A DNA stretch of 64,000 nucleotides from a virus (IMGVR_UViG_3300025853_008930:1-64000), one strand, 5' to 3'; shown: positions 7,381-64,000, counted from the stretch's first letter. Made by a program: numbers and translations. Notes: generated from the letters alone by a model not told the origin.

Positions 7381-7731
7381 CTACTCTACCTCCATAGTTA
7401 TAAAAATCTCAAGTGTGGCACTATTAGATATCGGGCCGATTGCGTCAAAATTAATTCTTTGAAGCATATTATTACTACTATCAAACAAACCTACTTCTCT
7501 AACAGTTCGCCCATTTAATATAGAACCCGCTACTGATAATTTAACATCTATAACATTACCATCAGCAGTAGATTGACTAACCGTAGTGGCTAGATTTGTT
7601 ACTATTGGAACATCTAGAGCATTATTAGATGGATTTGTGGAGTTTCCTCCCTGTCCTATTCCTCCCGTTCCTGCATTTACTAAAGTGTTAATTTCTTCAG
7701 CGACCAGTTCTTTCAATTTATCTGTTATCAT
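7381..7731 (-). CDS. Tail-tip or fibre-attachment protein
   Basis: VREVGLFD motif typical of tail-fibre N-terminal/baseplate proteins; context. Confidence 0.5.
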   Translation of the reverse strand: MITDKLKELVAEEINTLVNAGTGGIGQGGNSTNPSNNALDVPIVTNLATTVSQSTADGNVIDVKLSVAGSILNGRTVREVGLFDSSNNMLQRINFDAIGPISNSATLEIFITMEVE

Positions 7732-10700
7732 AGCAAATTCTCCTGTATTAAATTGGTGATAGTAAGAGTCCCACCCGCAAACCCAAATGTGTTGGTGTTC
7801 GTATTTAGTGTTGCCGCAAATCCTAAGTGGAAGTCTCCGGTAGTCTCCCTAGTCCTCACTAGTAGAGAAATTTCTTTCAATTTTATTTTTTCTAATATAT
7901 CTAAAGAAGGGATTTTTGATATATAGTCTTGTGACCTGTTTTTGTTTGCATTGTTCTGTGTTTTAAGCAATAATTCTGAAAATACATCTTCTAATCTTTT
8001 AGAGTATCTGCCTATTTCTAGAGTAATAAAACCAAACAATTCATGATTTACATTTAATACTAAGAAGTTAGATAGTCCGATATTTTCCTGTTTAGATTCA
8101 AATTGTATTATATCTCCTGCCTTTACCTGTTCTACACCTGTTGGTATTACCTTTATTTTGTGTTTAATGTTTAAATTACCGTGTATGTTGAGAAGTTTAG
8201 AAGCCTGTTCATCTACATCCTGTTGAGTAATTAAACTAGAATCTACTTCTTCTAAGGTTTTTCTTCCTATTTTCTTTATACTGTTTAGATTTCTTTTTAT
8301 GCCCTTATGCGACGCACCATAAACAATAACTTCATTATAAAAGTCAAATGTTGTTTTAGTAGATTGAAACTCTATCAACTTATCATCATCAATAAGTATG
8401 TTTGTTACTAGACTAGAATCACTATGAGGAACTACAGAAAATACACCGTCTGTTTCTAACAATCTCAAATCCTTTTTCTTTAATAAGAAATTTATAGCAG
8501 TAAAGGCTGAAACTCCTCTAAACTCCGGTGCTATAAATAACGGATATGTAGGAGTGGAGTTAGTGAATTCTATTCCTTCTTCTTCAAATATTTCATTAAT
8601 AATAGATTCTGTTTCATTTGCTATTGTGACGGTAGAACCAATACAGGCTCTATTAGGTGTTATTTTCAATTCTTCTAATGAATTAACAATGAATGTTTCC
8701 GAAACCGAAACCACTCCGTTTAATTTCTTTTTATCTTTTATAACTAAAGTATGCAAATTTTCGCCTACGATTTTCGATGAAGTGTTTGTTTTGAAAGAGT
8801 TAATACCGTCACTGTAGAATAACTCATGTTCTCCTGTTGGCAAAACTAAACTAGAAAGAGTAGTAATGATATTTGTAGAGGCTGTTTGATTATGAACATC
8901 AATCATAGCATACATAGACAATACTGCCTCATTAGTAGTTTCATGTTCCTTTCCTCCTTCATTAAAGAAATAGTGGCTTTTTTGCTTACCATACATTTCA
9001 TTAGAATTAGCCTTTTTAGTATATTCCGGTCTAGGAACAAATAGTTGTATATTATCCGGTGATTCTTCATAGAAACAAACAGGGTTAGGTTGCATTATTC
9101 TGTATGCCTTACCATTAGTTAAAGCCACTTCAGTATAGAGTTCTACATCATTACTACCATTAGTAACTTCTTGAGCATAAACATATATTGGCTGAACTTT
9201 AGTGCCTATTATTGAATCTACCGAACTAACACTAGCAGTTCCGCTTTCTTCTACTAAATAACATCCTGTTAAATCTACATATTTTAGCCATGCTGTTTTA
9301 TCGGGATGATGTGGAGTAATTACCGTTTTATATATTTGACTTCCCGTAGAACGGTGTAAAACCCCTCCGCCTATTTGAGCCGAACCCGTATTGTAAAATA
9401 ATCTAAGTTTAAATCCAATAAAAGCACCATCGGCAGGAGAACGAAAATCAGCAGTTCCGTAATCATTTACGGTAGGACTAGCATTTAAATCATCAACTCT
9501 TAAAAATTCCTTAAAGTGTTTTAAAGAACAAACATTAATTATTTCTTGAGTTCCTATTGATGTTCCATCTATTTCTCTACCACCAGTATTAGTTCCTAAA
9601 ACCCCTGTGCAGTTTCCTGCTTCTAACTTATGAAAAGAATCTTCTATGTCATATCTATCTAATATAACTCCTATTGTTCCACCAAAGACATTATTTTTAG
9701 TGGTATCTATCATTTCTTGAGTAGGTATTGTGAGGGCTGAATTATGTGTTCCCGCTACAAAGTTAGCATTATTAAATAATTTATTCTTATATATACTAGG
9801 TAAAACTACTTCGGCATCATCAGGCATACTTATGGCAGAATTACCTTGAAACTCATAAGCCCAATCTCCCGAAAATTCTCCGTAATCATAATTAGAAGAT
9901 TTCGGAATAATAGCACCTTTTAGTGGGTGATATTTAGTTTCACTTCCAACAGTGTTTCCGATGAGACTATCTGTTTTGTGCCTTCCTTTGATATAACTTG
10001 TAAAGTCTGTTATTACTCTTACAGGGTTTGAGTGTGTAGTGCTAAAGTCCGGTGAGTGTAAAACACCAGTAACAGTCTTAAACACCGTTCCCGTTGTTCC
10101 ACCGGAAATTTCCGGCCCAAAACTATTATGAAGCCTACAAATAAATTTACCATCGCTAGTAAAAATTTCATCACCTCTAGAGAGCGTTAAAGAATTTTGA
10201 AAAGTAATAGTATTAGCCGTTGGGCTATTTATAGCCGTGATGGTATTTCCAGTAAGAGAGATTCTAGTGTGAAATTGATTAGCAATATCAGTTTCATTTT
10301 TAGAGTAGATTTCATCCGTGGATTTTTCGGGATTAAATAAATTAAAATTCTCATCATAAACACATTCTGTTAATCTCATTAATCCAAATCGTTTTAGATT
10401 GTTCAAAGTAACTTCTGTAGTAAATGATAGTGTTTGAAAATTGCTATCTTGTAATACTAAATTAGTTCCTCCTGTCTTTTTAGTATTTTCCAATAAAAAT
10501 AATTTATAATCGTTTATGGTTTTTAAAGTAGAAAAAATGCTGCTAGGTCTATTATCTGAATATGGTAATATATCACAAGTCATATAGAAAAACAATCTAG
10601 GAAATGAGTGGTCTTTGTATTCAAATGCCATAGAATAAATTGGGGAAAGTCCTCTAAGACTACTCGGAACAGCAGATAGGATTGCGCTATCTCTTTTCAT

Positions 10701-13700
10701 TCTTCTTTGATAAGTAATATTAGAACCATAAGCACTATTCATACCTCTCATATCATAAGGCATTTTTCTATTTGAATCAGTTTTTCCTTCTTCTATTACA
10801 TTATTTAATCCTGAATTAACATTGGGTTTAAATTGATAAGAAGTAAAGTTAGAAACAAAAGGAGTTTTTCTAACACTAAAGAAACCTGCTGTGATTGTAG
10901 GCGGGTCGTTAAATGTAAATGTTTCATCGCCTAATCTCTTAGTATCGGAATTAAATGATTTATAAATAGACATACCGAATTCTTTATTCATATCGCTAGT
11001 TCCTAAATGCATATTAAATGGAACTGTCCTACTGCTATCATCTGCAAGAAAAGTATGATGAGGTATAGTTATCATTTTTCCTCCCCAAAGATGTGCAGAA
11101 TTAAGGGTGTTAATGTGATGTCTTTTTCTAACTGAAAAATAAATAATATCGCCTATATCAAAATTTAATGTATTTCCTGCGCTGGTTTCTGTTCTATCTA
11201 CTTGAACATAAAAAGTAGAAGTGTTAGTAGCAGGATTACCCGAACTTACGAAATCTGCTGCTCTATCGGTTTGAAATATATCCAACACATATCCAATAAA
11301 TCCTTTTGTTTCGCTTACTGAATTATCAAAACTTTCACAATATAGCGGGTCGCCAATATTTACACTATTAGACAAGGAAGTAGTGGTAAAAACTACCTCT
11401 CTAGCATTTTCATTAACTGTAACTACTGCGGCTTGGGTATAAGTTGTTTCCATCCTCTCAGCATCAATGCCTTCATATTTTATTTTTCTACCTAGAGTCA
11501 AAGGAATATAAGGGGCTAATTCTATTTCTGTTACATTGTCTTTCTTAGTAGTAGAAACAACTTCAAAGTCTATTAAAGTATCAACGGTATCAAAAGCACT
11601 TTCCCCATTAGTTGATATTTCATCCTTTAATTTGCATTGGAAAGGATTATCATTTGCGATACTAGATGGTTCATGTATTTGATACCCTACTGCGTTTTTG
11701 TCTGCTGAAGAATATTTACCATTAGTTAAATTAAAAGAACCGAAAGAAGAAGTATTGACTAAACTATCCCCTTCTGCCGCACTATTGCTTAGCCCTAAAT
11801 TCATATTACCCGCAGTAAATATAACTCCTTTTTCCGAAGAACCTGATAAAGAAGTTGGCGAGGTAGAGGCGATATGCGAAGAACCCAATGCTTTTGTGAA
11901 CATATAATTTTTTTCGCTTTGTTTGTATATTGTTTCCCCTGCGGCCACTCTAGTTATTGCTCTTGTTATTCCAACTTGAACCAAACTTCCACTATAAGTG
12001 CTAACAGAAGTAACCCTTCCAATATATCCATTAACAGAAAATAATAAATCACCCACTACAGGCATCGAAGAAAAACTAGATGAAGAAACGCCAAATTGAA
12101 TTAGATTGTCAAATACTTCTACTTCATTAGGAGCAGAAGAACCATTACCTGTATAAGTCGTTGTTAATTTATTATAAGGGCTAAATGATGAATAAATAAT
12201 ATCTTCACTAAATACGGTATCTTTATTCACTATAGGAGATAGAAGTTTATTCATCGAGTCTCTTCCTTTTATATCTAAAAAGGTTTGACCCTCCTCCTTT
12301 AGTTGATTAATCTCTTCTACCTCTCCATTGAATCTTAGTGAAAATACTCTATATTCCCCTTTAACAAATTTAAAACCGTTTGAAGAATAATAACTCTTAA
12401 ATCTATTATTTTCTGCATATCTGTAAAAATCAAGAGTTGATTTATCTATATCTTTTGCTTCAACATCTGCAAATATATTTTGAAGATTACCCGAAGTAAA
12501 AAGTATTTTTAGTTTTTCAAAATCCCCACTTAAATCCATAGTTGTGAATATTCTGCGATTTGTAAAGTCCATAGCCCTTCTTTGTAATGTGTTTCCTTCG
12601 GTGGGAGTAAAAGAGACAGAAGTAAAGTTTCTTTTTCCTGCCTCTCTTTTTTCTGCTCTTACTGTTATTGTCTGCGTGGTAGTATTATTAGTAAATGAAC
12701 CAAAACTAGAAACTAGCATAATAGTAGTTCCTAATCGAATTTCATCTCCGACTTCTAATACTGTGCTTAAATCATATTCAGTATCAAACTCAAATACATT
12801 TGTAGATGAAGTAGAAGAATAAGTTGCCTTTAAATCAACAAAGTCGTCTAAATTACCAATATGCACCAACTGTTTTGCCTTGTAGGGGGTATGTTCTTCT
12901 ATCTTCTTCCTCATAATTCTAGCATTATCTAGTATTCTAGTTTCCGAAAAACTACCCTGTTCTATTGAGTCTTCTGTTTCGTGTTGGGAAACCCCTGTAA
13001 CTATGTTGGCACTTTCGGGCGAAAGGCCGTAGTGTAAATATCTCATTTCTCCTCTATTATTTTTAATACTACTATTAGAATCATCTCTTCTACAATTTGG
13101 ATAGGCTAATCTATAGGTAGTATAATTAGTCGTTATAGTATTTCCTTCATCAGTCAATGTAGAGCCGGAAGAAGTAGAACCAAATCCATCTTCATCTAGG
13201 TTACGCAACACATCGGTTAGTTCTGTTTTTAGAGAAAATTTACTATAATCAATCACTTGCTTGCCAAAATCTTGAACAGTTCTAAATACTACTCCTGTTG
13301 TATTACTACTACCCATTGATATTGTTCCCGCACCTGTTCTAGAATTCATGGAAGCATAATATTTGAAATTGTGATTTAACTCATTTTTATTAGTAAGTTT
13401 GCCATGAGAAGTTGATGCGTAGTTAGTGGAATATCCTGCTAGGGGAATATCATTATAGAAATAAAAGTGAGGCCTAGCACAAACAATATTATTTTTTAGA
13501 TTATATGTAGTCTCCTGTTTTAATCCGACAGAAAGTGCTATTATTTTTCTTTTGAATGTGTTAGAGTCGTTATCTACTCCAGTTATAACTCTATATTTTG
13601 TTCCTTTTGGTATTTCACTTCCCATTTTAGGTTCAAATTCAAAAGCATCCCCAGTAGTGGTTCCATTACCATTATCTTCTGCTACTAGATTTGTTATTCT

Positions 13701-13997
13701 AGCAAAATGATGTTTAGCGGGGTCATCGGAATATAATAGAACAAAATAATCAGTAGTCCCGAAAGAAGATAGTGTTAATAAATTGCTTCCATCAGTGTCA
13801 TGTTTTATTCGGAATCCTTTGGTATTCGCTTGGTTAGAATCTTCACTACCTATTGTTAAATTAAAACTATTGCCATCATCTGCTAATATAACTACAGCCA
13901 TTAAATCCCCATCACTAACTGATGAGTCTGCAAACTTAGGATTAGTTGGGGATTCATCCCTATTGGCTTGTGTGGCCGGACTCACATCTATAGCCAT
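7728..13997 (-). CDS. Very large tail-tip/hub protein (2089 aa)
   Basis: Beta-rich; C-terminal hub-like region (FYNEVIVYG...AGDIIQF); downstream of tape measure. Confidence 0.6.
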   Translation of the reverse strand: MAIDVSPATQANRDESPTNPKFADSSVSDGDLMAVVILADDGNSFNLTIGSEDSNQANTKGFRIKHDTDGSNLLTLSSFGTTDYFVLLYSDDPAKHHFARITNLVAEDNGNGTTTGDAFEFEPKMGSEIPKGTKYRVITGVDNDSNTFKRKIIALSVGLKQETTYNLKNNIVCARPHFYFYNDIPLAGYSTNYASTSHGKLTNKNELNHNFKYYASMNSRTGAGTISMGSSNTTGVVFRTVQDFGKQVIDYSKFSLKTELTDVLRNLDEDGFGSTSSGSTLTDEGNTITTNYTTYRLAYPNCRRDDSNSSIKNNRGEMRYLHYGLSPESANIVTGVSQHETEDSIEQGSFSETRILDNARIMRKKIEEHTPYKAKQLVHIGNLDDFVDLKATYSSTSSTNVFEFDTEYDLSTVLEVGDEIRLGTTIMLVSSFGSFTNNTTTQTITVRAEKREAGKRNFTSVSFTPTEGNTLQRRAMDFTNRRIFTTMDLSGDFEKLKILFTSGNLQNIFADVEAKDIDKSTLDFYRYAENNRFKSYYSSNGFKFVKGEYRVFSLRFNGEVEEINQLKEEGQTFLDIKGRDSMNKLLSPIVNKDTVFSEDIIYSSFSPYNKLTTTYTGNGSSAPNEVEVFDNLIQFGVSSSSFSSMPVVGDLLFSVNGYIGRVTSVSTYSGSLVQVGITRAITRVAAGETIYKQSEKNYMFTKALGSSHIASTSPTSLSGSSEKGVIFTAGNMNLGLSNSAAEGDSLVNTSSFGSFNLTNGKYSSADKNAVGYQIHEPSSIANDNPFQCKLKDEISTNGESAFDTVDTLIDFEVVSTTKKDNVTEIELAPYIPLTLGRKIKYEGIDAERMETTYTQAAVVTVNENAREVVFTTTSLSNSVNIGDPLYCESFDNSVSETKGFIGYVLDIFQTDRAADFVSSGNPATNTSTFYVQVDRTETSAGNTLNFDIGDIIYFSVRKRHHINTLNSAHLWGGKMITIPHHTFLADDSSRTVPFNMHLGTSDMNKEFGMSIYKSFNSDTKRLGDETFTFNDPPTITAGFFSVRKTPFVSNFTSYQFKPNVNSGLNNVIEEGKTDSNRKMPYDMRGMNSAYGSNITYQRRMKRDSAILSAVPSSLRGLSPIYSMAFEYKDHSFPRLFFYMTCDILPYSDNRPSSIFSTLKTINDYKLFLLENTKKTGGTNLVLQDSNFQTLSFTTEVTLNNLKRFGLMRLTECVYDENFNLFNPEKSTDEIYSKNETDIANQFHTRISLTGNTITAINSPTANTITFQNSLTLSRGDEIFTSDGKFICRLHNSFGPEISGGTTGTVFKTVTGVLHSPDFSTTHSNPVRVITDFTSYIKGRHKTDSLIGNTVGSETKYHPLKGAIIPKSSNYDYGEFSGDWAYEFQGNSAISMPDDAEVVLPSIYKNKLFNNANFVAGTHNSALTIPTQEMIDTTKNNVFGGTIGVILDRYDIEDSFHKLEAGNCTGVLGTNTGGREIDGTSIGTQEIINVCSLKHFKEFLRVDDLNASPTVNDYGTADFRSPADGAFIGFKLRLFYNTGSAQIGGGVLHRSTGSQIYKTVITPHHPDKTAWLKYVDLTGCYLVEESGTASVSSVDSIIGTKVQPIYVYAQEVTNGSNDVELYTEVALTNGKAYRIMQPNPVCFYEESPDNIQLFVPRPEYTKKANSNEMYGKQKSHYFFNEGGKEHETTNEAVLSMYAMIDVHNQTASTNIITTLSSLVLPTGEHELFYSDGINSFKTNTSSKIVGENLHTLVIKDKKKLNGVVSVSETFIVNSLEELKITPNRACIGSTVTIANETESIINEIFEEEGIEFTNSTPTYPLFIAPEFRGVSAFTAINFLLKKKDLRLLETDGVFSVVPHSDSSLVTNILIDDDKLIEFQSTKTTFDFYNEVIVYGASHKGIKRNLNSIKKIGRKTLEEVDSSLITQQDVDEQASKLLNIHGNLNIKHKIKVIPTGVEQVKAGDIIQFESKQENIGLSNFLVLNVNHELFGFITLEIGRYSKRLEDVFSELLLKTQNNANKNRSQDYISKIPSLDILEKIKLKEISLLVRTRETTGDFHLGFAATLNTNTNTFGFAGGTLTITNLIQENLL

Positions 13998-56015: not shown

Positions 56016-56465
56016 TTAACTCTCCATCGCATTCTTATCTTGGAAACCCCTACTAAATCCCTGCTCAAAGTCTATTCGCTTAACTTCTTTAACCGCACTA
56101 GTAGTAGGGTCGTCTTTTATTTCTTTAAATCTCATAATAGCCAAATCTACAAAAGATTCTATTCCTTCGGGAGTCAATCGCATTATAGTATCATTTTTTG
56201 GACTGTTGCCCCCGAAAAGGTCTACTGTTACAAAGGGCGTATCATCTTCCCCTGTGTCAATAAAAGCAATTTCATATGCCTTATATGAATGAGGGTCTTG
56301 TAATTTGCCGTGAGGAATTGACCCTAATCTATCTCCTGCTACCACGCTTAATTCTAAATCGGGTGCAATTTCAGTTCTTGAGTGATAGCCTCTCCTGTCA
56401 TTATACGGCTTAAACTCAATATCTTGGAATCTAAATTGTTTCTTAAGAATATCTTGCCAAGTCAT
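56016..56465 (-). CDS. WxxILK-leader protein
   Basis: MTWQDILKK. Confidence 0.6.
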   Translation of the reverse strand: MTWQDILKKQFRFQDIEFKPYNDRRGYHSRTEIAPDLELSVVAGDRLGSIPHGKLQDPHSYKAYEIAFIDTGEDDTPFVTVDLFGGNSPKNDTIMRLTPEGIESFVDLAIMRFKEIKDDPTTSAVKEVKRIDFEQGFSRGFQDKNAMES

Positions 56466-56818
56466 TTCTTACCCACCTGTCTGCCTTCTCCTGAAAATGG
56501 ATTATATGGAATATTTCTCGCTTTTCTTCTAGCCCTCATAGGCATTGAGTTAGTTTTATTACCTGCCATTCCAAACCCTACCTTTTTTCCTTTTCTTTGC
56601 TTAGTTTTACCCTTTGGTTGTGGTTGTCCAAAACTAGGTGAATCTGTTACATTACCAAACTCTTCTTCTAGTTCTTGCATTTCTGCATCTCTAACCTTTT
56701 TAGAACTTCGTCGTTCAACCCCAAGTTTCTTTTTTTGACGGTCATCTATTTTCCTTTCTATTGCTCTCAACCTACCTTCGGTAAAATATGGCTTTTTTAG
56801 TATATCTTGCCAAGTCAT
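56462..56818 (-). CDS. WxxILK-leader basic protein
   Basis: MTWQDILKK. Confidence 0.6.
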   Translation of the reverse strand: MTWQDILKKPYFTEGRLRAIERKIDDRQKKKLGVERRSSKKVRDAEMQELEEEFGNVTDSPSFGQPQPKGKTKQRKGKKVGFGMAGNKTNSMPMRARRKARNIPYNPFSGEGRQVGKK

Positions 56819-56922
56819 TTCTTACCACCTGTAACAAAACACTTCTTTGACTTTGCCTCTTTCTCATCAACTTCTTTTGACTTTGCATCAAACCACTTAT
56901 CGAGATAACTACACCTTGTCAT
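56815..56922 (-). CDS. 35-aa peptide
   Basis: Manual translation MTRCSYLDKWFD...; GGTGA RBS and ATGA overlap. Confidence 0.45.
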   Translation of the reverse strand: MTRCSYLDKWFDAKSKEVDEKEAKSKKCFVTGGKK

Positions 56923-56923
56923 A

Positions 56924-57265
56924 TTATTCACCTTCGGGGCCATAATCTCCTACATATCGAGCAAGTCTTAAAATTTCTTCAGCCACATCTCTAGCCTCAA
57001 ATTCCAAACCTGCTAATTTATCATAGAACTCTATTATTTTATTCTCATCATAATCTCTATTATCCCTGTTGTAGTCTCTTACTTTTTCAAAGAGTTTTAT
57101 GTAGTAATCTCTTGCGTCTACAGCCGGATTTTTTTCGTGCATTTCCATTAATTCAAATTTTGTTCTCACTAAACCTCTTATTAATTTAGACCTTGAGTCC
57201 ATAGACCTTTCTCGTCTATCAATTGCATCTCCTAAATCTTTTCTTATTTCGTCTTTCCATGTCAT
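56924..57265 (-). CDS. WxxILK-leader variant protein
   Basis: MTWKDEIRK. Confidence 0.6.
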   Translation of the reverse strand: MTWKDEIRKDLGDAIDRRERSMDSRSKLIRGLVRTKFELMEMHEKNPAVDARDYYIKLFEKVRDYNRDNRDYDENKIIEFYDKLAGLEFEARDVAEEILRLARYVGDYGPEGE

Positions 57266-57274
57266 ATTATTCAC

Positions 57275-57421
57275 CTACTGTAATTTTTTCAACATTAGTG
57301 CCGCTTTAGAACAAACTTTCCTTAGTAGGTCTGCATCATACATATCTTGTTTACTTGCATCCTCTAAATAATCTATCACATGCTCAAGCCCTTTTTGTTT
57401 AATTATATCTTCCCATGTCAT
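57275..57421 (-). CDS. 48-aa WxxILK-leader peptide
   Basis: Manual translation MTWEDIIKQKGLEHV...; GGTGA RBS. Confidence 0.6.
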   Translation of the reverse strand: MTWEDIIKQKGLEHVIDYLEDASKQDMYDADLLRKVCSKAALMLKKLQ

Positions 57422-57463
57422 ATTATTCACCTTTTATTTTAAACGCTTTTTTCAAAAATTTTT

Positions 57464-58317: not shown

Positions 58318-58363
58318 GAATGCTTATATTATTCAAAATTAACAAAGAAAAAAATTTTGGAAC

Positions 58364-58432
58364 AAAGCCATATGGTTGTAGAGCAACCGATTAACAAGCA
58401 TATGGTTCACTTTGCGGAACCCGCCATATATA
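58364..58432 (+). promoter_or_regulatory. Array repeat R1 (divergent, doubled core) plus TATA
   Basis: CCATATGGTTG-TAGAG-CAACC, then GCATATGGTTC-ACTTTGCG-GAACC and CATATATA. Confidence 0.7.
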
Positions 58433-58452
58433 CTTTACAGGAATGAGTAGTC

Positions 58453-58836
58453 ATGTCACTGAACATAGTATATCAAAGAAGCATAAAAGAGGAGAACGAA
58501 GACAGTATTGAGATAAGTTGCTGTAAAGAAGGCAACGAATATTGGGCATATGCCTTAAAAGTCCTTACTTCAATAGCCAACAAGTCAAACACACGGCCAC
58601 ACATCTATTTTGATTGGGGAAAGAGTAGTAAATGCACCATGAGAGTAGCGGGTTCTTGGAATGCCGAAAGCATGAGTAGTTTCCTAAGAAAAGCATCAAG
58701 CAAGAGAGCAATCGAAAGCGGTCTTTTCAATGGTCGCAGAACTTGGGTTTTCAATCATAAAACTGAAGAATACGAGCGAGTGAATGAAGAAGATGTAGAT
58801 GCTTTACCTAGAGATACCTACGCTATGATGGAGTAG
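58453..58836 (+). CDS. Cassette 1 hypothetical protein (leaderless)
   Basis: ATG 53 nt after the repeat ATAT. Confidence 0.7.
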   Translation: MSLNIVYQRSIKEENEDSIEISCCKEGNEYWAYALKVLTSIANKSNTRPHIYFDWGKSSKCTMRVAGSWNAESMSSFLRKASSKRAIESGLFNGRRTWVFNHKTEEYERVNEEDVDALPRDTYAMME

Positions 58837-58844
58837 ATAAATAC

Positions 58845-58895
58845 GGTTAAAAAAACCCTGCAAGGTTTCGGCCTTGTGGGGTTTTACCTTTTTTT
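58845..58895 (+). terminator. Hairpin/T-tract terminator
   Basis: AAAACCCTGCAAGG-TTTCGG-CCTTGTGGGGTTTT followed by ACC and a T run. Confidence 0.8.
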
Positions 58896-58901
58896 GGTCA
58901 A

Positions 58902-58993
58902 GGTTTGGTGCTTACGCTACGCTCTAAATTCATTATATAAATTACATTTATTATATGAATTTACACCAAACCATATGGTTCACTTTCGGAACC
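58902..58993 (+). repeat. Array repeat R2 (double hairpin/promoter)
   Basis: GGTTTGGTG..CACCAAACC-ATAT-GGTTC-ACTTTCG-GAACC. Confidence 0.9.
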
Positions 58994-59024
58994 CAGAATA
59001 TATATCTTCCATCAAGGAGTATGT

Positions 59025-59228
59025 GTCTAGCCGGCATAATAGACAAGAACAGACCGGAGTTAAGCGGCCTATCGGCTTAACACTATGGCCTAATGACGAG
59101 AGGAAACTTGGAATAGAGGTAAAGTGGCTAGAAAAACATGGCGATGGATATGAACGCCCGTATCTAACAAATCAAGTGTTTTTTGCAGGACTAGGGGATA
59201 TAGGCTCTCCCCTAGTCCAAGTTTTTTT
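59025..59228 (+). ncRNA. Cassette 2: putative ~200-nt structured RNA
   Basis: No self-contained ORF; stems TCTAGCC/GGCTAGA and GTTAAGC/GCTTAAC; 11-bp terminal hairpin plus T run. Confidence 0.5.
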
Positions 59229-59233
59229 ATCGA

Positions 59234-59300
59234 GGTTTGGTGTCGTTATATATTATAACGGTGAATGTGACACCAAACCATATGGTATGCTTTCAATACC
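59234..59300 (+). repeat. Array repeat R3
   Basis: GGTTTGGTGTC..GACACCAAACC-ATAT-GGTAT-GCTTTCA-ATACC (compensatory changes in the small stem). Confidence 0.9.
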
Positions 59301-59331
59301 CGTTTCATATAGTTGTATAGTAATAGTATGC

Positions 59332-59619
59332 ATGTCAGTAGTACAAAAACCGATTAGGCCTAATATTGAAGATTACCAAATTGATAGTGAAAATGATTGG
59401 ATTGAAACATTTTGGAGAGATATGGAAACATATAACAATGAAATGAGATTGTGGAATTTTCGCCAACAGTGGTTAAGTGAATATGGAGTAACTGAAGAAA
59501 TGTGGATTCAAACACCTGTTGAACTTCAGCGAATTATGGTCGAGTTACATCATGAATGTGAGAAGCAAAATCAACTCATGTATGACCTTGAGGAATGGCG
59601 TGACTCAATGCCCATTTGA
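59332..59619 (+). CDS. Cassette 3 hypothetical protein (leaderless, 95 aa)
   Basis: MSVVQKPIRP...; ATG 52 nt after the repeat ATAT. Confidence 0.7.
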   Translation: MSVVQKPIRPNIEDYQIDSENDWIETFWRDMETYNNEMRLWNFRQQWLSEYGVTEEMWIQTPVELQRIMVELHHECEKQNQLMYDLEEWRDSMPI

Positions 59620-59629
59620 GGCATTAGTC

Positions 59630-59679
59630 GGTCAAAAAACCTCCCTTGCTTTCGGGCTTGGGAGGTTTTACCTTTTTTT
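59630..59679 (+). terminator. Hairpin/T-tract terminator
   Basis: AAAACCTCCC..TTCG..GGGAGGTTTT followed by ACC and a T run. Confidence 0.8.
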
Positions 59680-59684
59680 ATTGA

Positions 59685-59750
59685 GGTTTGAGGTCGTTTT
59701 AATTAACTTACTAGATAGTAACCTCAAACCATATGGTTCACTTTAGGAAC
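59685..59750 (+). repeat. Array repeat R4
   Basis: GGTTTGAGGT..ACCTCAAACC-ATAT-GGTTC-ACTTTAG-GAAC. Confidence 0.9.
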
Positions 59751-59798
59751 ACGAATTATATATTATATCTATATTAGAGGGTAGAAAGAGTGATTAAA

Positions 59799-60200
59799 AT
59801 GGTGTGCGAAGAATGTGGAAGAGGATTGAGATATAATACAGAAAGCGGTTTATGTAGTATGTGCATGAATGATTTAATAGACGAGACGCTAGAGCGTTTT
59901 ATGCAAGAAGAGTATAAGGCAGAAGGCGAAAAGGTGTTTAAATGCCCTAAGTGTAATCGCTTAGACTGTATTCAAGGAGACTTTGTTTTGAATGATTGGG
60001 AAGAGTTTAAACCTATACTAAAACCGACAAATACTGATATGTGGTGTCAATATATGTATAAGGGTAAAATGGTTCAAGGTAACACTTTACTGGATGAAAT
60101 TCAGGAGTTAAGAATGGAATGCAAGTATTGTGGATATGACTTTGACGGCCAAGACGACGAACTTAACAACAACACAGTTATTACTCATGGAGGTGTCTAA
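59799..60200 (+). CDS. Cassette 4 zinc-finger protein
   Basis: CEEC, CSMC, CPKC and CKYC pairs; GAGTGA RBS. Confidence 0.7.
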   Translation: MVCEECGRGLRYNTESGLCSMCMNDLIDETLERFMQEEYKAEGEKVFKCPKCNRLDCIQGDFVLNDWEEFKPILKPTNTDMWCQYMYKGKMVQGNTLLDEIQELRMECKYCGYDFDGQDDELNNNTVITHGGV

Positions 60201-60202
60201 TA

Positions 60203-60385
60203 ATGATAGTAATAACAGGTTGGGCAGTTTGGGATAATGAGGCATGGAGGACAGATTTTCGGAACATATACCCCACAAAGGAACTTGCTATGGAAGCGGC
60301 TAAAAAGCATTATAGTTACTTAGGAGACACAGAAGAAGACTATGGCGACCACATGATAAGTCCGGTTGAAATAACGGTTCATTGA
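60203..60385 (+). CDS. Cassette 4 small protein
   Basis: GGAGGT RBS; IYPTKELAMEAA. Confidence 0.65.
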   Translation: MIVITGWAVWDNEAWRTDFRNIYPTKELAMEAAKKHYSYLGDTEEDYGDHMISPVEITVH

Positions 60386-60392
60386 GTTAAAC

Positions 60393-60442
60393 GGTAAAAA
60401 AACCCCTTGTTTTTAGGAGCAAGGGGTTTTTACCTTTTTTTT
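60393..60442 (+). terminator. Hairpin/T-tract terminator
   Basis: AAAAACCCCTTG..CAAGGGGTTTTT followed by ACC and a T run. Confidence 0.8.
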
Positions 60443-60447
60443 ATTGA

Positions 60448-60512
60448 GGTTTGAGGTCGTTTTATACTTATTACTGTTAGTAACCTCAAACCATATGGTT
60501 CACTTTCGGAAC
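60448..60512 (+). repeat. Array repeat R5
   Basis: GGTTTGAGGT..ACCTCAAACC-ATAT-GGTTC-ACTTTCG-GAAC. Confidence 0.9.
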
Positions 60513-60544
60513 TCGGATTATATATCGAACAGGGTGGAGTATGC

Positions 60545-61023
60545 ATGTCGGGAGTCATGAACCGGCAGGGATTGACCGAACACCCTATTGAACGGGGGTA
60601 AGGTGCAATGTTCCGAGTAGTTTCGGCTTATGTAATTATGATGCTCTAATGAGTGAGTTTTTACCTCTAAGAAAAAGTCCTTGAACCTCAAAAGGGGAGT
60701 TATTACTAGTAACTTGGATAACATTGGCAGTATGGCTCTTAAGAATCAAAGAATCAAGAGAGCGTTCAAAGTGAGTGCGACCCAATCGTATCATACTTGA
60801 AGATACCCAACTCTTCATCCCATCCTATTCCAATGGCTATTAGTGGCCATAACACCATTGAGAAACAAAGGCGAAAGTCAAAGTTGAAAATGTAAGGCGG
60901 CAGAAAATAGAAAGAGATTGTAAGTTATCTAAATACTAGTTAGTTAGTGACCTCTCATCAAACCTACTAAGCATCACGCATTCCCTTGCTTTGAACGAGT
61001 AGCCGGAGTTTCTCACTTTTTTT
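60545..61023 (+). ncRNA. Cassette 5: putative ~480-nt structured RNA
   Basis: Bounded by promoter and T-tract; no + strand ORF of 60 aa or more; several stems including TGAGAAAC/GTTTCTCA and GGC-GAAA-GTC. Confidence 0.55.
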
Positions 61024-61028
61024 ATCGA

Positions 61029-61100
61029 GGTTTGGCATCGTTATTATTATGAATTACTTTACCTATGGTAATGCCAAACCATATGGTTCACTTTGAGAAC
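61029..61100 (+). repeat. Array repeat R6
   Basis: GGTTTGGCAT..ATGCCAAACC-ATAT-GGTTC-ACTTTGA-GAAC. Confidence 0.9.
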
Positions 61101-61174
61101 ACGGTTCTTATACCGAATCATAGGTAGTAGTCGCTTCAAGGGGTTGAAGTGTAATTATCATTGAGGTGAAAATT

Positions 61175-61651
61175 ATGAATTTGGAAAAACTAGAAACTAA
61201 TAGAAATAACATACGAACATGGATGAAGGAAAACGAAAGCCCGCTTAATGATGCTTTAGAGGGTCTACTCACAGCATCGGAGTTGGCTAAAACTGATGAT
61301 GAGGCGGTCAAGTATTGGTCGTCAATTCGTTCACTTTGTGGCAACATGAGTCCTTCTCCTGTTAGAAAAGGTGTGCAATCAAAATACAGTGTCGAGCAAT
61401 TGGCAGTATTAGACGCTATTGGAACAGAAGTTGATGAGGCTTCTGTCCGCTACCACAACGACGGTATTATGTCTAAGGTATTGTTTTCTCACGGTAAATC
61501 CGGTGGAAAAACTATGCTTGCAGAAGTATTTGGTAAGACTATGAGAAATATGACCATCAGCAAACTTAAGAAAAAGTTAGATGCAGGAATATGGGATGGA
61601 ACTCTAGCCGGTTTAGACTCCTTGACCGAAACAACGGAGGATAATGAGTGA
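61175..61651 (+). CDS. Cassette 6 protein, paralogue of 62460-62969
   Basis: YWSSIRSLCGNMSPSPVRKG...WDGTL; GAGGTGA RBS. Confidence 0.75.
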   Translation: MNLEKLETNRNNIRTWMKENESPLNDALEGLLTASELAKTDDEAVKYWSSIRSLCGNMSPSPVRKGVQSKYSVEQLAVLDAIGTEVDEASVRYHNDGIMSKVLFSHGKSGGKTMLAEVFGKTMRNMTISKLKKKLDAGIWDGTLAGLDSLTETTEDNE

Positions 61652-61686
61652 TTAACATTTCAACCCCTTGTTGCCCCCACTCCCGA

Positions 61687-61782
61687 TTAGGCCGAATAGT
61701 GAAACTACTCTTACAGTGCAGTAAATAAGCACTTCTTAAGAGATTTGAAAAAATAGTTTCACTATTCGGTCTAAGTTTTTTT
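61687..61782 (+). ncRNA. Conserved 3' RNA element, copy 1
   Basis: 21-bp outer stem (one G-U) enclosing CTCTTA-CAGTGC..GCACTTCT-TAAGAG-ATTTG-AAAAAA. Confidence 0.65.
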
Positions 61783-61788
61783 ATTTAG

Positions 61789-61859
61789 GGTTTGATGCGG
61801 CCTTCGGCCTAAATGTTTAAAGAACATTTCATCAAACCATATGGTTCACTTTAAGAACC
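61789..61859 (+). repeat. Array repeat R7
   Basis: GGTTTGATG..CATCAAACC-ATAT-GGTTC-ACTTTAA-GAACC. Confidence 0.9.
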
Positions 61860-61890
61860 CGATTGATATATCTATTGGCATGGAGATAAC

Positions 61891-62238
61891 ATGCGAAAAA
61901 TAACACAAGACGCAATAAGAGCATTTGAACAGCATAAGAAATTTAAGCGAAGCAATACCGAAGTTGAAGTAAGTGGAAGCGGATTATTTGCCGAACTAAA
62001 ACTACATGGGAATACAATCGCCAAAAGTGGAATATTTGAAGGTTTGATGATTTCATCAGCCGGATGGAATACCAACACCACAAAAGAACGCTTAAACGGA
62101 TTTGATGGAGTTCACATCCATCAAAAAGACTTCACATGGTATTTGAATGGCCGTGAATGGACAGGCGAATGGGTTGATGTTGATGATTTCACCAAACACG
62201 GCCATTATTGTCAATTCGTTGGCGGAACATCATTCTAA
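61891..62238 (+). CDS. Cassette 7 hypothetical phage protein
   Basis: ATG 52 nt after the repeat ATAT; LHGNTIA...GWNTNTTKERLN. Confidence 0.7.
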   Translation: MRKITQDAIRAFEQHKKFKRSNTEVEVSGSGLFAELKLHGNTIAKSGIFEGLMISSAGWNTNTTKERLNGFDGVHIHQKDFTWYLNGREWTGEWVDVDDFTKHGHYCQFVGGTSF

Positions 62239-62270
62239 TTATGAACTGATATAGTTTGAGGACTATAACT

Positions 62271-62309
62271 GCCTTTCTCGACCCTTCGGGGTCGGGATTG
62301 GCTTTTTTT
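62271..62309 (+). terminator. Hairpin/T-tract terminator
   Basis: CGACCC-TTCG-GGGTCG followed by a T run. Confidence 0.8.
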
Positions 62310-62311
62310 GG

Positions 62312-62380
62312 GGTTGTGAGTAATGTATTTTATAATACTAGGGGAGTATTACTCACAACCATATGGTTCACTTTGAGAAC
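62312..62380 (+). repeat. Array repeat R8
   Basis: GGTTGTGAGTAAT..ATTACTCACAACC-ATAT-GGTTC-ACTTTGA-GAAC. Confidence 0.9.
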
Positions 62381-62459
62381 TTGATTCATATACTATTAAG
62401 GAAATAGTAGTTGCTTCACGGGGTATGAAGTAAACTTACAAACATCGGAGTGATAAAAA

Positions 62460-62969
62460 ATGATGGAATATAGTAAAATAATTAGCAAAACAGACGATAT
62501 ATTGACTTGGCTTGATGTCAATGATGCAGGTGCTTTGGATAGTGCCATTCGAGGCATCATTGCAGTTGCTAGAGTCGAAGGACAGACAGAAAAACAATAC
62601 GGTAACTATTGGGGTAGTATTCGCCAAATGTGCGGCAACCTCCCAAACTCACCTATCCGCAAAGGAACTCAACCGTCACTACCTGTCGAAGCACAAGCGG
62701 TTGTGGATTCTGTAATGACTCAAGTAACAGATGCTTTTGCGGGTATTACTGAAAACACTGGACTACTTCTTGAAGTTATCCTACCTTTCAGAAATACAAC
62801 CGGCAAAGGCTTTGAGTCTATGGATGACCTAGCCGCATATATGGCAGGTCGAGCCCGTGATGCATTAATTAAGGCTCATAAAGATGGTCGTTGGGATGGA
62901 ACTCTTAACGACGGACTAACAGGTATGACCCCTCCTCAACCTGCATCAAAGAAGGAGGCTAGTAAGTAA
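62460..62969 (+). CDS. Cassette 8 protein, paralogue of 61175-61651
   Basis: YWGSIRQMCGNLPNSPIRKG...WDGTL; GGAGTGA RBS. Confidence 0.75.
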   Translation: MMEYSKIISKTDDILTWLDVNDAGALDSAIRGIIAVARVEGQTEKQYGNYWGSIRQMCGNLPNSPIRKGTQPSLPVEAQAVVDSVMTQVTDAFAGITENTGLLLEVILPFRNTTGKGFESMDDLAAYMAGRARDALIKAHKDGRWDGTLNDGLTGMTPPQPASKKEASK

Positions 62970-63017
62970 GGCTAACCGATTACCCCGTGTTGCCCCTCTA
63001 CTAAATTAATTCAACAA

Positions 63018-63119
63018 ATAGCACCCAAAGGACATTACAACTCATACAGTCAAGAGAGTTCACGACTTCTTATGAGATAGTAAAAAATAAAGTGTCCTTT
63101 GGGTGTCTATGCTTTTTTT
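63018..63119 (+). ncRNA. Conserved 3' RNA element, copy 2
   Basis: Outer stem CACCCAAAGGACAT/GTGTCCTTTGGGTG enclosing CTCATA-CAGTC..GACTTCT-TATGAG-ATAGT-AAAAAA. Confidence 0.65.
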
Positions 63120-63125
63120 ATGCAG

Positions 63126-63192
63126 GGTTTGAGGCGTAGAATAATATTCAACAAAAGAATGTGCCTCAAACCATATGGTTCACTTTCGGAAC
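63126..63192 (+). repeat. Array repeat R9
   Basis: GGTTTGAGGC..GCCTCAAACC-ATAT-GGTTC-ACTTTCG-GAAC. Confidence 0.9.
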
Positions 63193-63224
63193 ACAATTGA
63201 TATACGCCTCGACCTATAGATACC

Positions 63225-63497
63225 ATGACGGTAATAGATTGGCATGAGCAAGTAAGAGAATACAAAAAACACTATGATGATGATGATGGGATTCATGAAT
63301 ATATAGAAGGGTTACTCCCTGTATATTTCGGTGACATCAACCAAGTATATCATGATGAGATAGGAACACCTCTCAATATTGAGATTGAACCTCATCATGT
63401 CGGCCTTGAGTTTTGGCGAATAATGATAGGTCATATTTTCGAGGAATATGTTGAGAAATTCTTAGAGGCTTGGCATGAAGTAGAGGAGGAAGAGTAA
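63225..63497 (+). CDS. Cassette 9 acidic protein (leaderless)
   Basis: ATG 52 nt after the repeat ATAT; very acidic. Confidence 0.7.
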   Translation: MTVIDWHEQVREYKKHYDDDDGIHEYIEGLLPVYFGDINQVYHDEIGTPLNIEIEPHHVGLEFWRIMIGHIFEEYVEKFLEAWHEVEEEE

Positions 63498-63716
63498 ATG
63501 ATACCGAGATGGAACGACGAAGTTTATCCGGTAATATCTTCCTTAGACGGTTTCAATAATTCAGCAATTGAAGCGATATGTAGCACATACAAAGACGCAA
63601 AAAATTATGTTGCTAAATTAGAGAGTAGAGAGGCGTTAAAGGGTCTTGAGTTCGCTATCCTATGCTTCGACATAATAGAATGCGGGGAAATAGTAGACAG
63701 TAAAATACTGGAATAA
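63498..63716 (+). CDS. Cassette 9 small protein
   Basis: Abuts the upstream stop; GAGG RBS. Confidence 0.6.
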   Translation: MIPRWNDEVYPVISSLDGFNNSAIEAICSTYKDAKNYVAKLESREALKGLEFAILCFDIIECGEIVDSKILE

Positions 63717-63725
63717 ATCACACTC

Positions 63726-63775
63726 GGTCAAAAAAACCGGCTATCTTTCGGGGTAGTCGGTTTTTACCTTTTTTT
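63726..63775 (+). terminator. Hairpin/T-tract terminator
   Basis: AAAAACCGGCTATC-TTTCGG-GGTAGTCGGTTTTT followed by ACC and a T run. Confidence 0.8.
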
Positions 63776-63778
63776 CGA

Positions 63779-63830
63779 GGTTTTGTGCAGTTATTATTTA
63801 TTTAACCCCTTGACAGTTGCACAAAACCAT
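63779..63830 (+). repeat. Array repeat R10 (long hairpin only, promoter half missing)
   Basis: GGTTTTGTGCA..TGCACAAAACC-AT, then diverges. Confidence 0.75.
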
Positions 63831-64000
63831 ACCACATTATAACCATAAGCCTTCACTTGGTAGCAACAATTACTACCCAAGATTCCCACACCCTCGATAA
63901 TATTATTTTCAATTGAGTGTATAAATAATGAAAATAATAATAAAAATATCAATATCATATACTATATAATAGTAAGAAAAACATTATTTTGGGTCAGCAG

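Follow-up and report, generated by a model that had tools for sequence, protein, structure and literature searches.

The closest described counterparts of the element reported here are PeSL (promoter-early stem-loop) cassettes, carried by T4-type phages in their hyperplastic regions (Arbiol et al. 2010, PMC2839356; Comeau et al. 2014, PMC4122927). PeSL motifs flank orphan genes, recombine with one another and give rise to mini-circles without any dedicated recombinase (PMC2839356). In archaeal viruses, regulatory sequences of early genes guide the search for anti-defence genes (Bhoobalan-Chitty et al. 2024, PMC11065993). We analyzed a stretch of 64,000 nucleotides of viral DNA (IMGVR_UViG_3300025853_008930:1-64000, hereafter the window), which makes up the initial 64 kb of a viral contig of 80,705 bp (the record, or G000) with an estimated completeness of 86%. 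At positions 58,364-63,830, ten junctions (R1-R10) bound nine cassettes (C1-C9), all on the + strand. We will call the element repeated at these junctions a joint. It is probably a composite regulatory joint which fences self-contained accessory units in a magrovirus-like, most likely archaeal, virus, and it represents a real and significant variant of regulatory-cassette shuffling.

Functionally, PeSL is the closest system, an analogy already drawn in a previous sequence-only reading of the window. In both cases, composite promoter and stem-loop motifs flank small, mostly orphan genes in one plastic region (here at the sequence level), the units are transcriptionally self-contained (here as predicted), close relatives are distinguished by units inserted, deleted or replaced, with crossovers located within the motif, and no dedicated recombinase is known. 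However, PeSL motifs contain sigma-70 boxes, whereas the joint has a TATA-type box in a virus of most likely archaeal host; when the joints were compared with sigma-70-type early promoters of T4, T at -7 was present in four of nine units, and the box of relatives kept its place at the base of the stem. Conserved G/C tracts acting as terminators form the stems of PeSL, whereas the joint is composed of an invariant palindrome with two inverted repeats, whose stems are variable yet complementary, and a separate terminator hairpin precedes it. The joint array is, furthermore, a single locus per genome. As for the archaeal early-gene system (PMC11065993), it also contains rows of small single-gene units of unknown function, each behind a near-identical TATA-containing sequence. 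In contrast to the joint, a BRE (B recognition element) and TATA box are combined there with an Aca8 operator in crenarchaeal rod-shaped and filamentous viruses, and the passages considered here describe no twin hairpins, palindrome, covariation or cassette reordering.

The array forms a + strand island, which begins at the end of minus-strand genes (58,317), at the minimum of cumulative GC skew. Each internal junction (R2-R9) starts with an A-run, a GC stem and a run of seven to eight Ts, resembling a terminator; four terminators passed a terminator scan and the remainder, composed of a GC stem and T7-8 run, were recognized by eye. A long stem follows, GGTT(T)G-variable...variable-C(A)AACC, around an AT-rich loop of 23-53 nt. 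Outside R1, these stems are perfect, with 9-13 bp in nine junctions (R2-R10). Then come ATAT, a small stem GGTTC-aCTTTnn-GAAC(C), 5-7 nt and a box (A/T)TATA(T/C), so that the palindrome AACCATATGGTT lies between the long stem and the small CTTT-loop stem. The 22-nt core CCATATGGTTCACTTTNNGAAC matched eight times at up to three mismatches, always on the + strand, between 58,398 and 63,192 (0.01 matches expected by chance; 0 of 100 shuffles reached eight), and it was not found elsewhere in the 80,705-bp record. The sequence-only reading had described ten repeats and nine cassettes, each laid out as repeat, TATA, payload and terminator. This holds overall; R1, however, has a double core without the long hairpin, and R10 is only a half-site. 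Promoter, terminator and start sites in the following list are predictions, and all features lie on the + strand.

58346-58435 (+): R1, array boundary and first junction; motif AAAAATTTTGGAACAAAG, then CCATATGG (58368-58375), no long hairpin; mini-hairpin GGTTG/CAACC (5 bp), second core (imperfect, 58398-58419), TATA-like box at 58426-58433
58453-58895 (+): cassette 1; open reading frame (ORF) of 127 aa at 58453-58836, no family match; hairpin and T-run terminator at 58852-58895
58902-59006 (+): R2; long hairpin 58902-58972 (9-bp stem), palindrome 58969-58980, small hairpin 58977-58993, TATA-like box at about 59000-59006
59018-59231 (+): cassette 2; no ORF longer than about 19 aa; terminator at its end
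59234-59313 (+): R3; 11-bp long stem, deviant small hairpin GGTAT/ATACC
59332-59680 (+): cassette 3; 95-aa ORF 59332-59619, no family match; terminator
59685-59764 (+): R4; 10-bp stem
59790-60443 (+): cassette 4; CxxC-rich 136-aa ORF 59790-60200, 60-aa ORF 60203-60385, terminator 60398-60441
60448-60526 (+): R5; 10-bp stem, arms as in R4, loop different
60530-61022 (+): cassette 5; conserved structured non-coding RNA of two modules, 5' (about 60540-60826) and 3' (about 60827-61020)
61029-61113 (+): R6; 10-bp stem
61166-61783 (+): cassette 6; 161-aa ORF 61166-61651 of the core cargo family, structured 3' region and terminator 61687-61783
61789-61872 (+): R7; 9-bp stem, two inner hairpins in the loop
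61891-62309 (+): cassette 7; 115-aa ORF 61891-62238, PF23790 Kyano_Gp96 / phrog_554 (E 8e-18); terminator
62312-62394 (+): R8; 13-bp stem of GGTTG type
62460-63120 (+): cassette 8; 169-aa ORF 62460-62969, paralogue of cassette 6; structured 3' region and terminator
63126-63206 (+): R9; 10-bp stem
63225-63775 (+): cassette 9; 90-aa ORF 63225-63497, 72-aa ORF 63498-63716, terminator 63732-63775
63779-63831 (+): R10, terminal half-site; 11-bp long hairpin, then AACCATA, where core similarity ends

One + strand frame (58876-59619) is open for 247 codons; it starts ahead of R2, crosses cassette 2 with its terminator as well as R3, and continues into the ORF of cassette 3. This is probably a matter of chance, though unusual for AT-rich sequence.

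Arms of the long stems vary between copies while staying complementary, and all nine arm pairs agree with the earlier description of them. When partners were swapped among the nine window stems, the mean stem length dropped from the observed 10.3 bp to 5.8 bp, and 0 of 100,000 permutations reached the observed mean. In a MAFFT alignment of 12 units, the long helix was 100% paired, with three of its nine pairs changed on both sides; its covariation score was 0.307 as compared to 0.126 in shuffles (0 of 500 reached the observed value), and pairing fell to 26-55% when the partner was shifted by 1-3 columns. Folding of the nine junctions with DNA parameters gave -9.5 to -18.6 kcal/mol (z -3.6 to -6.4), and further small hairpins were present inside most long loops, as also noticed previously. 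Between the window and its close relative G001, 0 of 126 nt differed in orthologous stems but 16 of 164 columns differed in loops (Fisher p 1e-4), 11 of these 16 differences stemming from one indel block.

Related elements were searched for with a gapped pattern followed by a structure filter. The wider family obtained in this way is symmetric, CAAAG-N-AACCATATGGTT-N-CTTTG. On either side, a stem begins with GGT and ends with ACC, carries CTTTG in its loop and is directly followed by Y-T-A-W-A-W-A-A (T2 in 65 and A3 in 62 of 79 half-units). The stem sequence is free to vary (60 distinct stems among 79 distinct half-units), and stems of at least 6 bp anchored on the palindrome CCATATGG were observed 105 times versus six times in shuffles. 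CTTTG was found within the loop in 103 of 166 half-units; loop sequence was otherwise not conserved. Across the family, stems range from 2 to 13 bp and loops from 3 to 55 nt, yet palindrome and box are always located at the stem base. Such arrays are present in 32 of the loci retrieved. Besides the record, about 30 viral contigs carry the symmetric form, invariably gathered into a single array per genome. In each of five further genomes (29-97 kb, three of them complete), 5-9 copies of ACCATATGGT were detected, only in one 3-5-kb cluster and spaced roughly 100-1,100 bp. The boundary motif of R1 is likewise conserved at one array end across very divergent genomes, where AAAAATTTGGAACAAAG adjoins CCATATGG (window 58346-58375; L063, L092, L058, L061 and L135); read on the other strand, this boundary is a stemless half-unit facing the opposed gene module. 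Relatives use the element in both orientations. In L063, units are directed toward the boundary; the long stem is there found on the promoter side, the opposite half being degenerate.

This comparison shows the window joint to be a one-sided derivative of the widespread symmetric element. In the window lineage, the position of the mirrored box is taken by an A-run, which is the T-run of the upstream terminator. Only the downstream half would remain a promoter; the upstream half keeps its stem. The lineage is strictly one-directional, with bacterial-looking terminators.

The distance between box and start codon agrees with a TATA box as well. A fixed promoter-to-ATG distance is a mark of leaderless genes. 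At R1, R3, R5, R7 and R9, ATG follows the conserved TATA at exactly 24 nt, suggesting that the mRNAs are leaderless; in the remaining window units, leaders are longer and contain ribosome sites of GGAG type. ATGs of the wider family are concentrated 26-30 nt from the first base of the box, mostly without a ribosome site, and the others have longer leaders with GGAGG. A Bacteroidota-type promoter (TTTG at -33, TAnnTTTG at -7) was considered because of CTTTG and a match in a metagenome-assembled genome (MAG, see below); it was rejected, as TAnnTTTG is missing and the spacing is wrong.

Exact-core scans of IMG/VR revealed three relatives of the window lineage, G001, G004 and G002. The order of their cassettes following the boundary is:

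Window: C1, C2, C3, C4, C5, C6, C7, C8, C9
G001 (78 kb): C4, C3, C6, C7, C5 variant, C8, C9; C1 and C2 absent
G004 (complete, 94.9 kb): C9-like, C8-like, C7-like, C6/C8 paralogue, then a new unit
G002 (7.6-kb fragment): starts with a C1-like unit

Both order and content thus differ among relatives with breakpoints in the repeat, which bears out the shuffling proposed in the sequence-only reading. All three relatives retain both flanks. The array is opened by C4 in G001, by C9 in G004 and by a homologue of C1 in G002. The order in G004 nearly reverses that of the window, with the orientation of units unchanged and both flanks syntenic. Crossovers that can be bracketed fall within 15-21 identical bases shared by joints, from CATATGGTTCACTTT to GAGAAC. 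Of five informative joints, four have kept the long stem together with the upstream unit. In the remaining one, the R3 stem is kept with the downstream unit, indicating an exchange at the border of T-run and stem. In the window and G001, C3 follows the promoter half ...ATACCCGTTTCATATAG, whereas in G004 and G002 a C8-like gene does so; because this half heads different genes in different relatives, exchanges must also have taken place downstream of the box. These patterns match homologous exchange between repeated joints, for which a site-specific enzyme would not be required, and crossovers beyond the palindrome fit homologous exchange (as in PeSL) at least as well as a site-specific system. 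Four loci from the first exact-match scans (L009, L010, L012 and L014) had single matches without junction architecture and were rejected as relatives of the window lineage; L010 later passed a looser array filter. L134 (Aquimarina) was a chance match, with no stems and no shared genes; about two chance matches were estimated for the pattern in question.

As for the host, the window virus is tailed, since portal, large terminase (TerL), tail protein and a ligase domain were identified. Published hallmarks of magroviruses are a 90-100 kb genome with two opposed modules, SF1 helicase, TFB, GroEL, ATP-dependent ligase and RFC-S (PMC10768690), and split PolB (DNAP) is another of their features (PMC5434244). 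G000, with 80.7 kb at 86% completeness, encodes SF1 helicase, GroEL, ATP-dependent ligase and a TFB-like protein, its relative G004 encodes split PolB (family-B polymerase), an RFC-like clamp loader and a PD-(D/E)XK nuclease, and the gene layout agrees with the published magrovirus map (PMC10768690); in these respects, the viruses are Magrovirales-like. The TFB-like protein (278 aa, L015:8848-9684, i.e. record 71848-72684, past the window) matched the TFIIB zinc ribbon with E 7e-6, just under the Pfam cut-off, gave a weak NCBIfam match to the TFB core and grouped with viral TFIIB-type families in clustering. A profile built from 18 homologues had exclusively TFIIB/TFB at the top of the PDB list and covered the zinc ribbon and the entire two-cyclin core of Pyrococcus TFB (E 0.003-0.03); the single-sequence AlphaFold model was uninformative (pLDDT 34). 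Such homologues are common in marine data, including Tara. A divergent protein of this type may give the virus its own promoter specificity. Taken together, the TFB-like gene of G000 with the split PolB and RFC-like gene of G004 place the virus with magroviruses, making the TATA-box reading reasonable. The archaeal assumption made in the sequence-only reading therefore gained support, and we consider it highly probable that the host is archaeal.

A model of the joint can be proposed on this basis. A GC hairpin with a T7-8 run would end the upstream transcript, the twin inverted-repeat element centred on AACCATATGGTT would come next, and the TATA-like box would start the next unit. DNA would be read in a folded state (hairpin or cruciform), bringing palindrome and box together, because stem and loop sizes vary (2-13 bp and 3-55 nt) yet palindrome and box stay at the stem base; the folded joint would probably be read by a symmetric factor. 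The perfectly repeated 15-22-bp core and the repeated terminator and stem flanks would supply homology, and recombination at the joints would delete, duplicate, reorder and exchange whole units, as shown experimentally for PeSL.

Several observations weigh against this model. If transcripts begin at ATG, the centre of the TATA-like box would lie about 23-24 nt upstream, slightly short of the textbook distance of about 26 nt, and, unusually for an archaeal promoter, variable stem sequence fills the position of the BRE. The small, promoter-side stem is weak in the window (4-5 bp, outer pair often unpaired) and its covariation is nearly absent. The covariation reported for it previously does include a double change in R3, but this is the sole one in the window, and the R3 orthologue in G001 has a broken hybrid stem. 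The folded-promoter idea thus rests mostly on relatives. In addition, promoter function alone does not explain why the perfect stem is kept on the non-promoter half. The sample behind the argument from wobble pairing is small: interior mismatches in 79 half-units (6 G.T, 4 A.C and 20 other) show no wobble excess. In six-frame searches of relatives, Pfam models of TFIIB cyclin and PCNA (PCNA_N) gave nothing clear, and the MCM model was non-specific, matching bacterial control genomes as well. Finally, the related 14.7-kb contig L135 (NZ_NZTP01000027.1) was binned in a MAG of Altibacter (Flavobacteriaceae). L135 itself is a piece of a related virus, with the boundary motif, seven joints, C7, C6/C8 paralogues and a 61%-identical SF1 helicase; its placement probably reflects mis-binning.

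Other explanations need to be weighed against the proposed joint. It is very improbable that the stems act in RNA, e.g. as hairpins processing or stabilising read-through transcripts. Read-through RNA would indeed include them, as they are located between co-oriented units, and the array carries a real structured RNA. However, the long stem follows the hairpin and T-run terminator, the small stem comes before the point at which transcription is predicted to start, loops are not conserved besides CTTTG, and the palindromic element is used in both orientations in relatives. Since the stems have no excess of wobble pairing, unlike the G.U-rich RNA of cassette 5 in the same array, selection on a DNA fold is favoured over RNA, in agreement with what the sequence-only reading had supposed. 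A role of the long hairpin as second terminator was ruled out, for no T-run follows it on either strand. A bacterial host, in which the joints would be literal PeSL cassettes with sigma-70-type early promoters (-35 TTCACT, 16-nt spacer, -10 TATAYN) and intrinsic terminators, is hardly plausible either. A promoter scan did flag TTCACT-16/17-TATAYT at four junctions (9/12 matches), the terminators resemble classic bacterial intrinsic ones, the chaperonin is of GroEL type, the nearest TerL relatives in the phage collection are Bacteroides phages (26% identity), C7 is of a cyanophage family, and a related contig was found in the Altibacter MAG. Yet T at -7 is restricted to the four units mentioned above, the would-be -35 shifts with stem length in relatives while the box keeps its position at the stem base, little weight can be given to the binning of a 14.7-kb viral contig, and strong Shine-Dalgarno use speaks against a Bacteroidota host. 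Moreover, the TFB-like protein and the split PolB and RFC-like gene of G004 match the magrovirus set, which includes GroEL (PMC10768690).

Two further alternatives assign the fold to dedicated machinery. We find it quite unlikely that the joint belongs to a structure-guided, integron-like site-specific system, in which an enzyme would read the twin hairpins, cut near the central ATAT and move cassettes as circles. As in integrons, a one-locus array of varied cassettes changes content and order between relatives at its sites; stems are kept as structure, not sequence, as in attC, and the long hairpin mostly travels with the upstream cassette (the four of five joints above), as attC would. The invariant 10-12-bp palindrome at the centre is typical of recombinase core sites, and many large viral ORFs belong to no known family. 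Both array ends are half-sites: the left one is a palindrome without stem, and the right one (R10, and likewise the last unit of G004) is a left-type hairpin with similarity lost directly after AACC. On the other hand, no tyrosine recombinase, serine recombinase or Y1/HUH transposase was found in G000, G004, G006, G007 and G010 (four of them complete), with controls matching as expected; PF00589 (tyrosine recombinase) gave nothing in these five and matched 14 of 14 control genomes, and ORFs neighbouring the array contained no IntI-type tyrosine recombinase family. The lack of a visible recombinase, first noticed in the window, thus extends to four complete relatives, and no fold of a nuclease or recombinase emerged for the cargo of C6 and C8. 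Not all crossovers are inside the palindrome, as one maps to the T-run/stem border and others downstream of the TATA box, breakpoints are resolved only to 15-21 identical bases without a precise cut site, and the tight link of stem and TATA in relatives indicates transcription. Cassettes have each their own promoter-like box and terminator (as predicted) instead of one common promoter, and perfect stems with outer boxes GGTT(T)G...C(A)AACC contrast with the imperfect attC repeat with RYYYAAC...GTTRRRY. Three of four integron features compared were lacking; hence the joint is neither an integron nor a relative of attC sites, which the sequence-only reading had named as analogues. Rather improbable, too, are hairpin-dependent promoters, in which a viral TFB-like factor or virion polymerase would recognise the extruded CTTTG stem-loop of a temporal gene class, with shuffling as a by-product. 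A folded DNA stem-loop is part of early accessory-gene promoters in the case of N4 virion RNA polymerase (RNAP) and of Frpo-type single-stranded DNA promoters of plasmid leading regions. The conserved CTTTG in the loop, the stem directly abutting the box in the wider family, the confinement of the motif to the array (which would make a distinct promoter class), the divergent TFB-like protein and a 2089-aa ORF of no family match, located among minus-strand ORFs including a tail-protein match, are consistent with such promoters. But searches with this ORF revealed no similarity to polymerases, the promoter-side stem of the window is weak and lies 5-7 nt from the box, and the best-conserved stems are on the non-promoter side, which promoter recognition leaves unexplained. 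N4 hairpins have 5-7-bp stems with 3-nt loops and need virion RNAP, whereas loops span 6-55 nt here, no PHROG, Pfam or PDB sequence match was obtained for the 2089-aa ORF, and the genome of the window virus is presumably injected as double-stranded DNA. Nothing observed here connects the joint to N4-type promoters, contrary to the analogy proposed earlier. More broadly, we regard it as unlikely that the twin-hairpin palindrome is the site of any structure-specific machine, i.e. a new recombinase or nuclease or a reader of extruded DNA, that both fires special promoters and mobilises cassettes as circles.

Next to the regulatory joint itself, payloads of the units deserve attention. Two cassettes lack ORFs, and the sequence-only reading had spoken of gene and RNA cassettes. 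For cassette 5, sequence comparisons confirmed a conserved structured non-coding RNA of about 490 nt. It has no + strand ORF of at least 40 aa, and its nucleotide identity is 77-95% to distant relatives whose proteins share only 25-40%. RNAalifold predicted 73 pairs in the 5' module (four sequences), 34 of them with compensatory double changes and many of them G.U. The 5' module recurs in L048, L091 and L063, and the 3' module in G001, G004, L058 and L123 behind other 5' partners, apparently including ORFs. Rfam (gathering and E-value thresholds) gave nothing credible and no family for C5, and ARAGORN found no tRNA. As the minimum free energy over the whole length was no better than in shuffles (z -0.09), the case rests on conservation and compensatory changes. 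Cassette 2 was not borne out as a structured RNA (z -2.06, no relatives found); it could be a gene for either a small RNA or a tiny peptide.

The C6/C8 family is the most recurrent cargo (23 loci, usually two to three paralogues per array). Its model is confident (pLDDT 85) and all-helical; there was no Foldseek match, and VIA-align found only generic similarity to three-helix bundles (Z up to 7.7, residues 1-68), so that neither a nuclease or recombinase fold nor a functional lead was obtained. A third paralogue (64362-64832, + strand) is situated just outside the array, before the SF1 helicase, and is 43% identical to its counterpart in L135. In both C6 and C8, the loop of a 5'-leader hairpin (CAAGGGGTTG / CACGGGGTA) is complementary to an element directly after the stop codon (CAACCCCTTG / TACCCCGTG); the pairing, 61109-61152 with 61655-61698 and 62400-62440 with 62975-63000, covaries between the paralogues. 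Similar leaders of the form TTGCTTC..GGGG occur in arrays of distant relatives. The C7 family was found in 10 loci. It belongs to PF23790/phrog_554, a small protein family of T4-like cyanophages, from which it follows that the putative archaeal virus and bacterial phages of the same habitat share it. Payloads other than C7 matched no known family.

Outside the array, the 2089-aa ORF mentioned above is located at 7728-13997 on the minus strand, and G004 has a 2774-aa ORF on L137. The motif AGGTGAATAATATGACATGG recurs at starts of minus-strand genes at window positions 56435-57433 so that several small, unrelated proteins have their ribosome site and M-T-W N-terminus in common.

The joint is not described in the literature searched: the magrovirus papers examined mention no promoters, palindromes or hairpins, and ACCATATGGT is absent from the magrovirus and archaeal-virus papers searched. 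What the window contributes is its strictly one-directional lineage with terminators of bacterial appearance, the overlap of T-run and mirrored box, the contrast of substitutions between stems and loops, the contrast in wobble pairing with the array's own RNA, and the crossovers outside the palindrome.

Magrovirus-like viruses rank with the most abundant viruses of archaea in the surface ocean. To our knowledge, no such virus has been cultured and nothing is known of its gene control. If a dedicated enzyme did read the fold, the joint would represent a new recombination system, and a structure-specific machine acting on the palindrome would give abundant marine archaeal viruses their own counterpart of the integron, operating without a known recombinase family. 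As it stands, the joint provides a testable promoter and terminator grammar for magrovirus-like viruses, and it marks accessory genes, possibly of host takeover or anti-defence, together with a conserved non-coding RNA. Because its stems covary, lie outside the predicted transcripts and have no wobble excess, it is a rare candidate for natural selection acting on a DNA fold at a promoter. At the same time, it makes visible a mechanism by which genes are exchanged between viruses.

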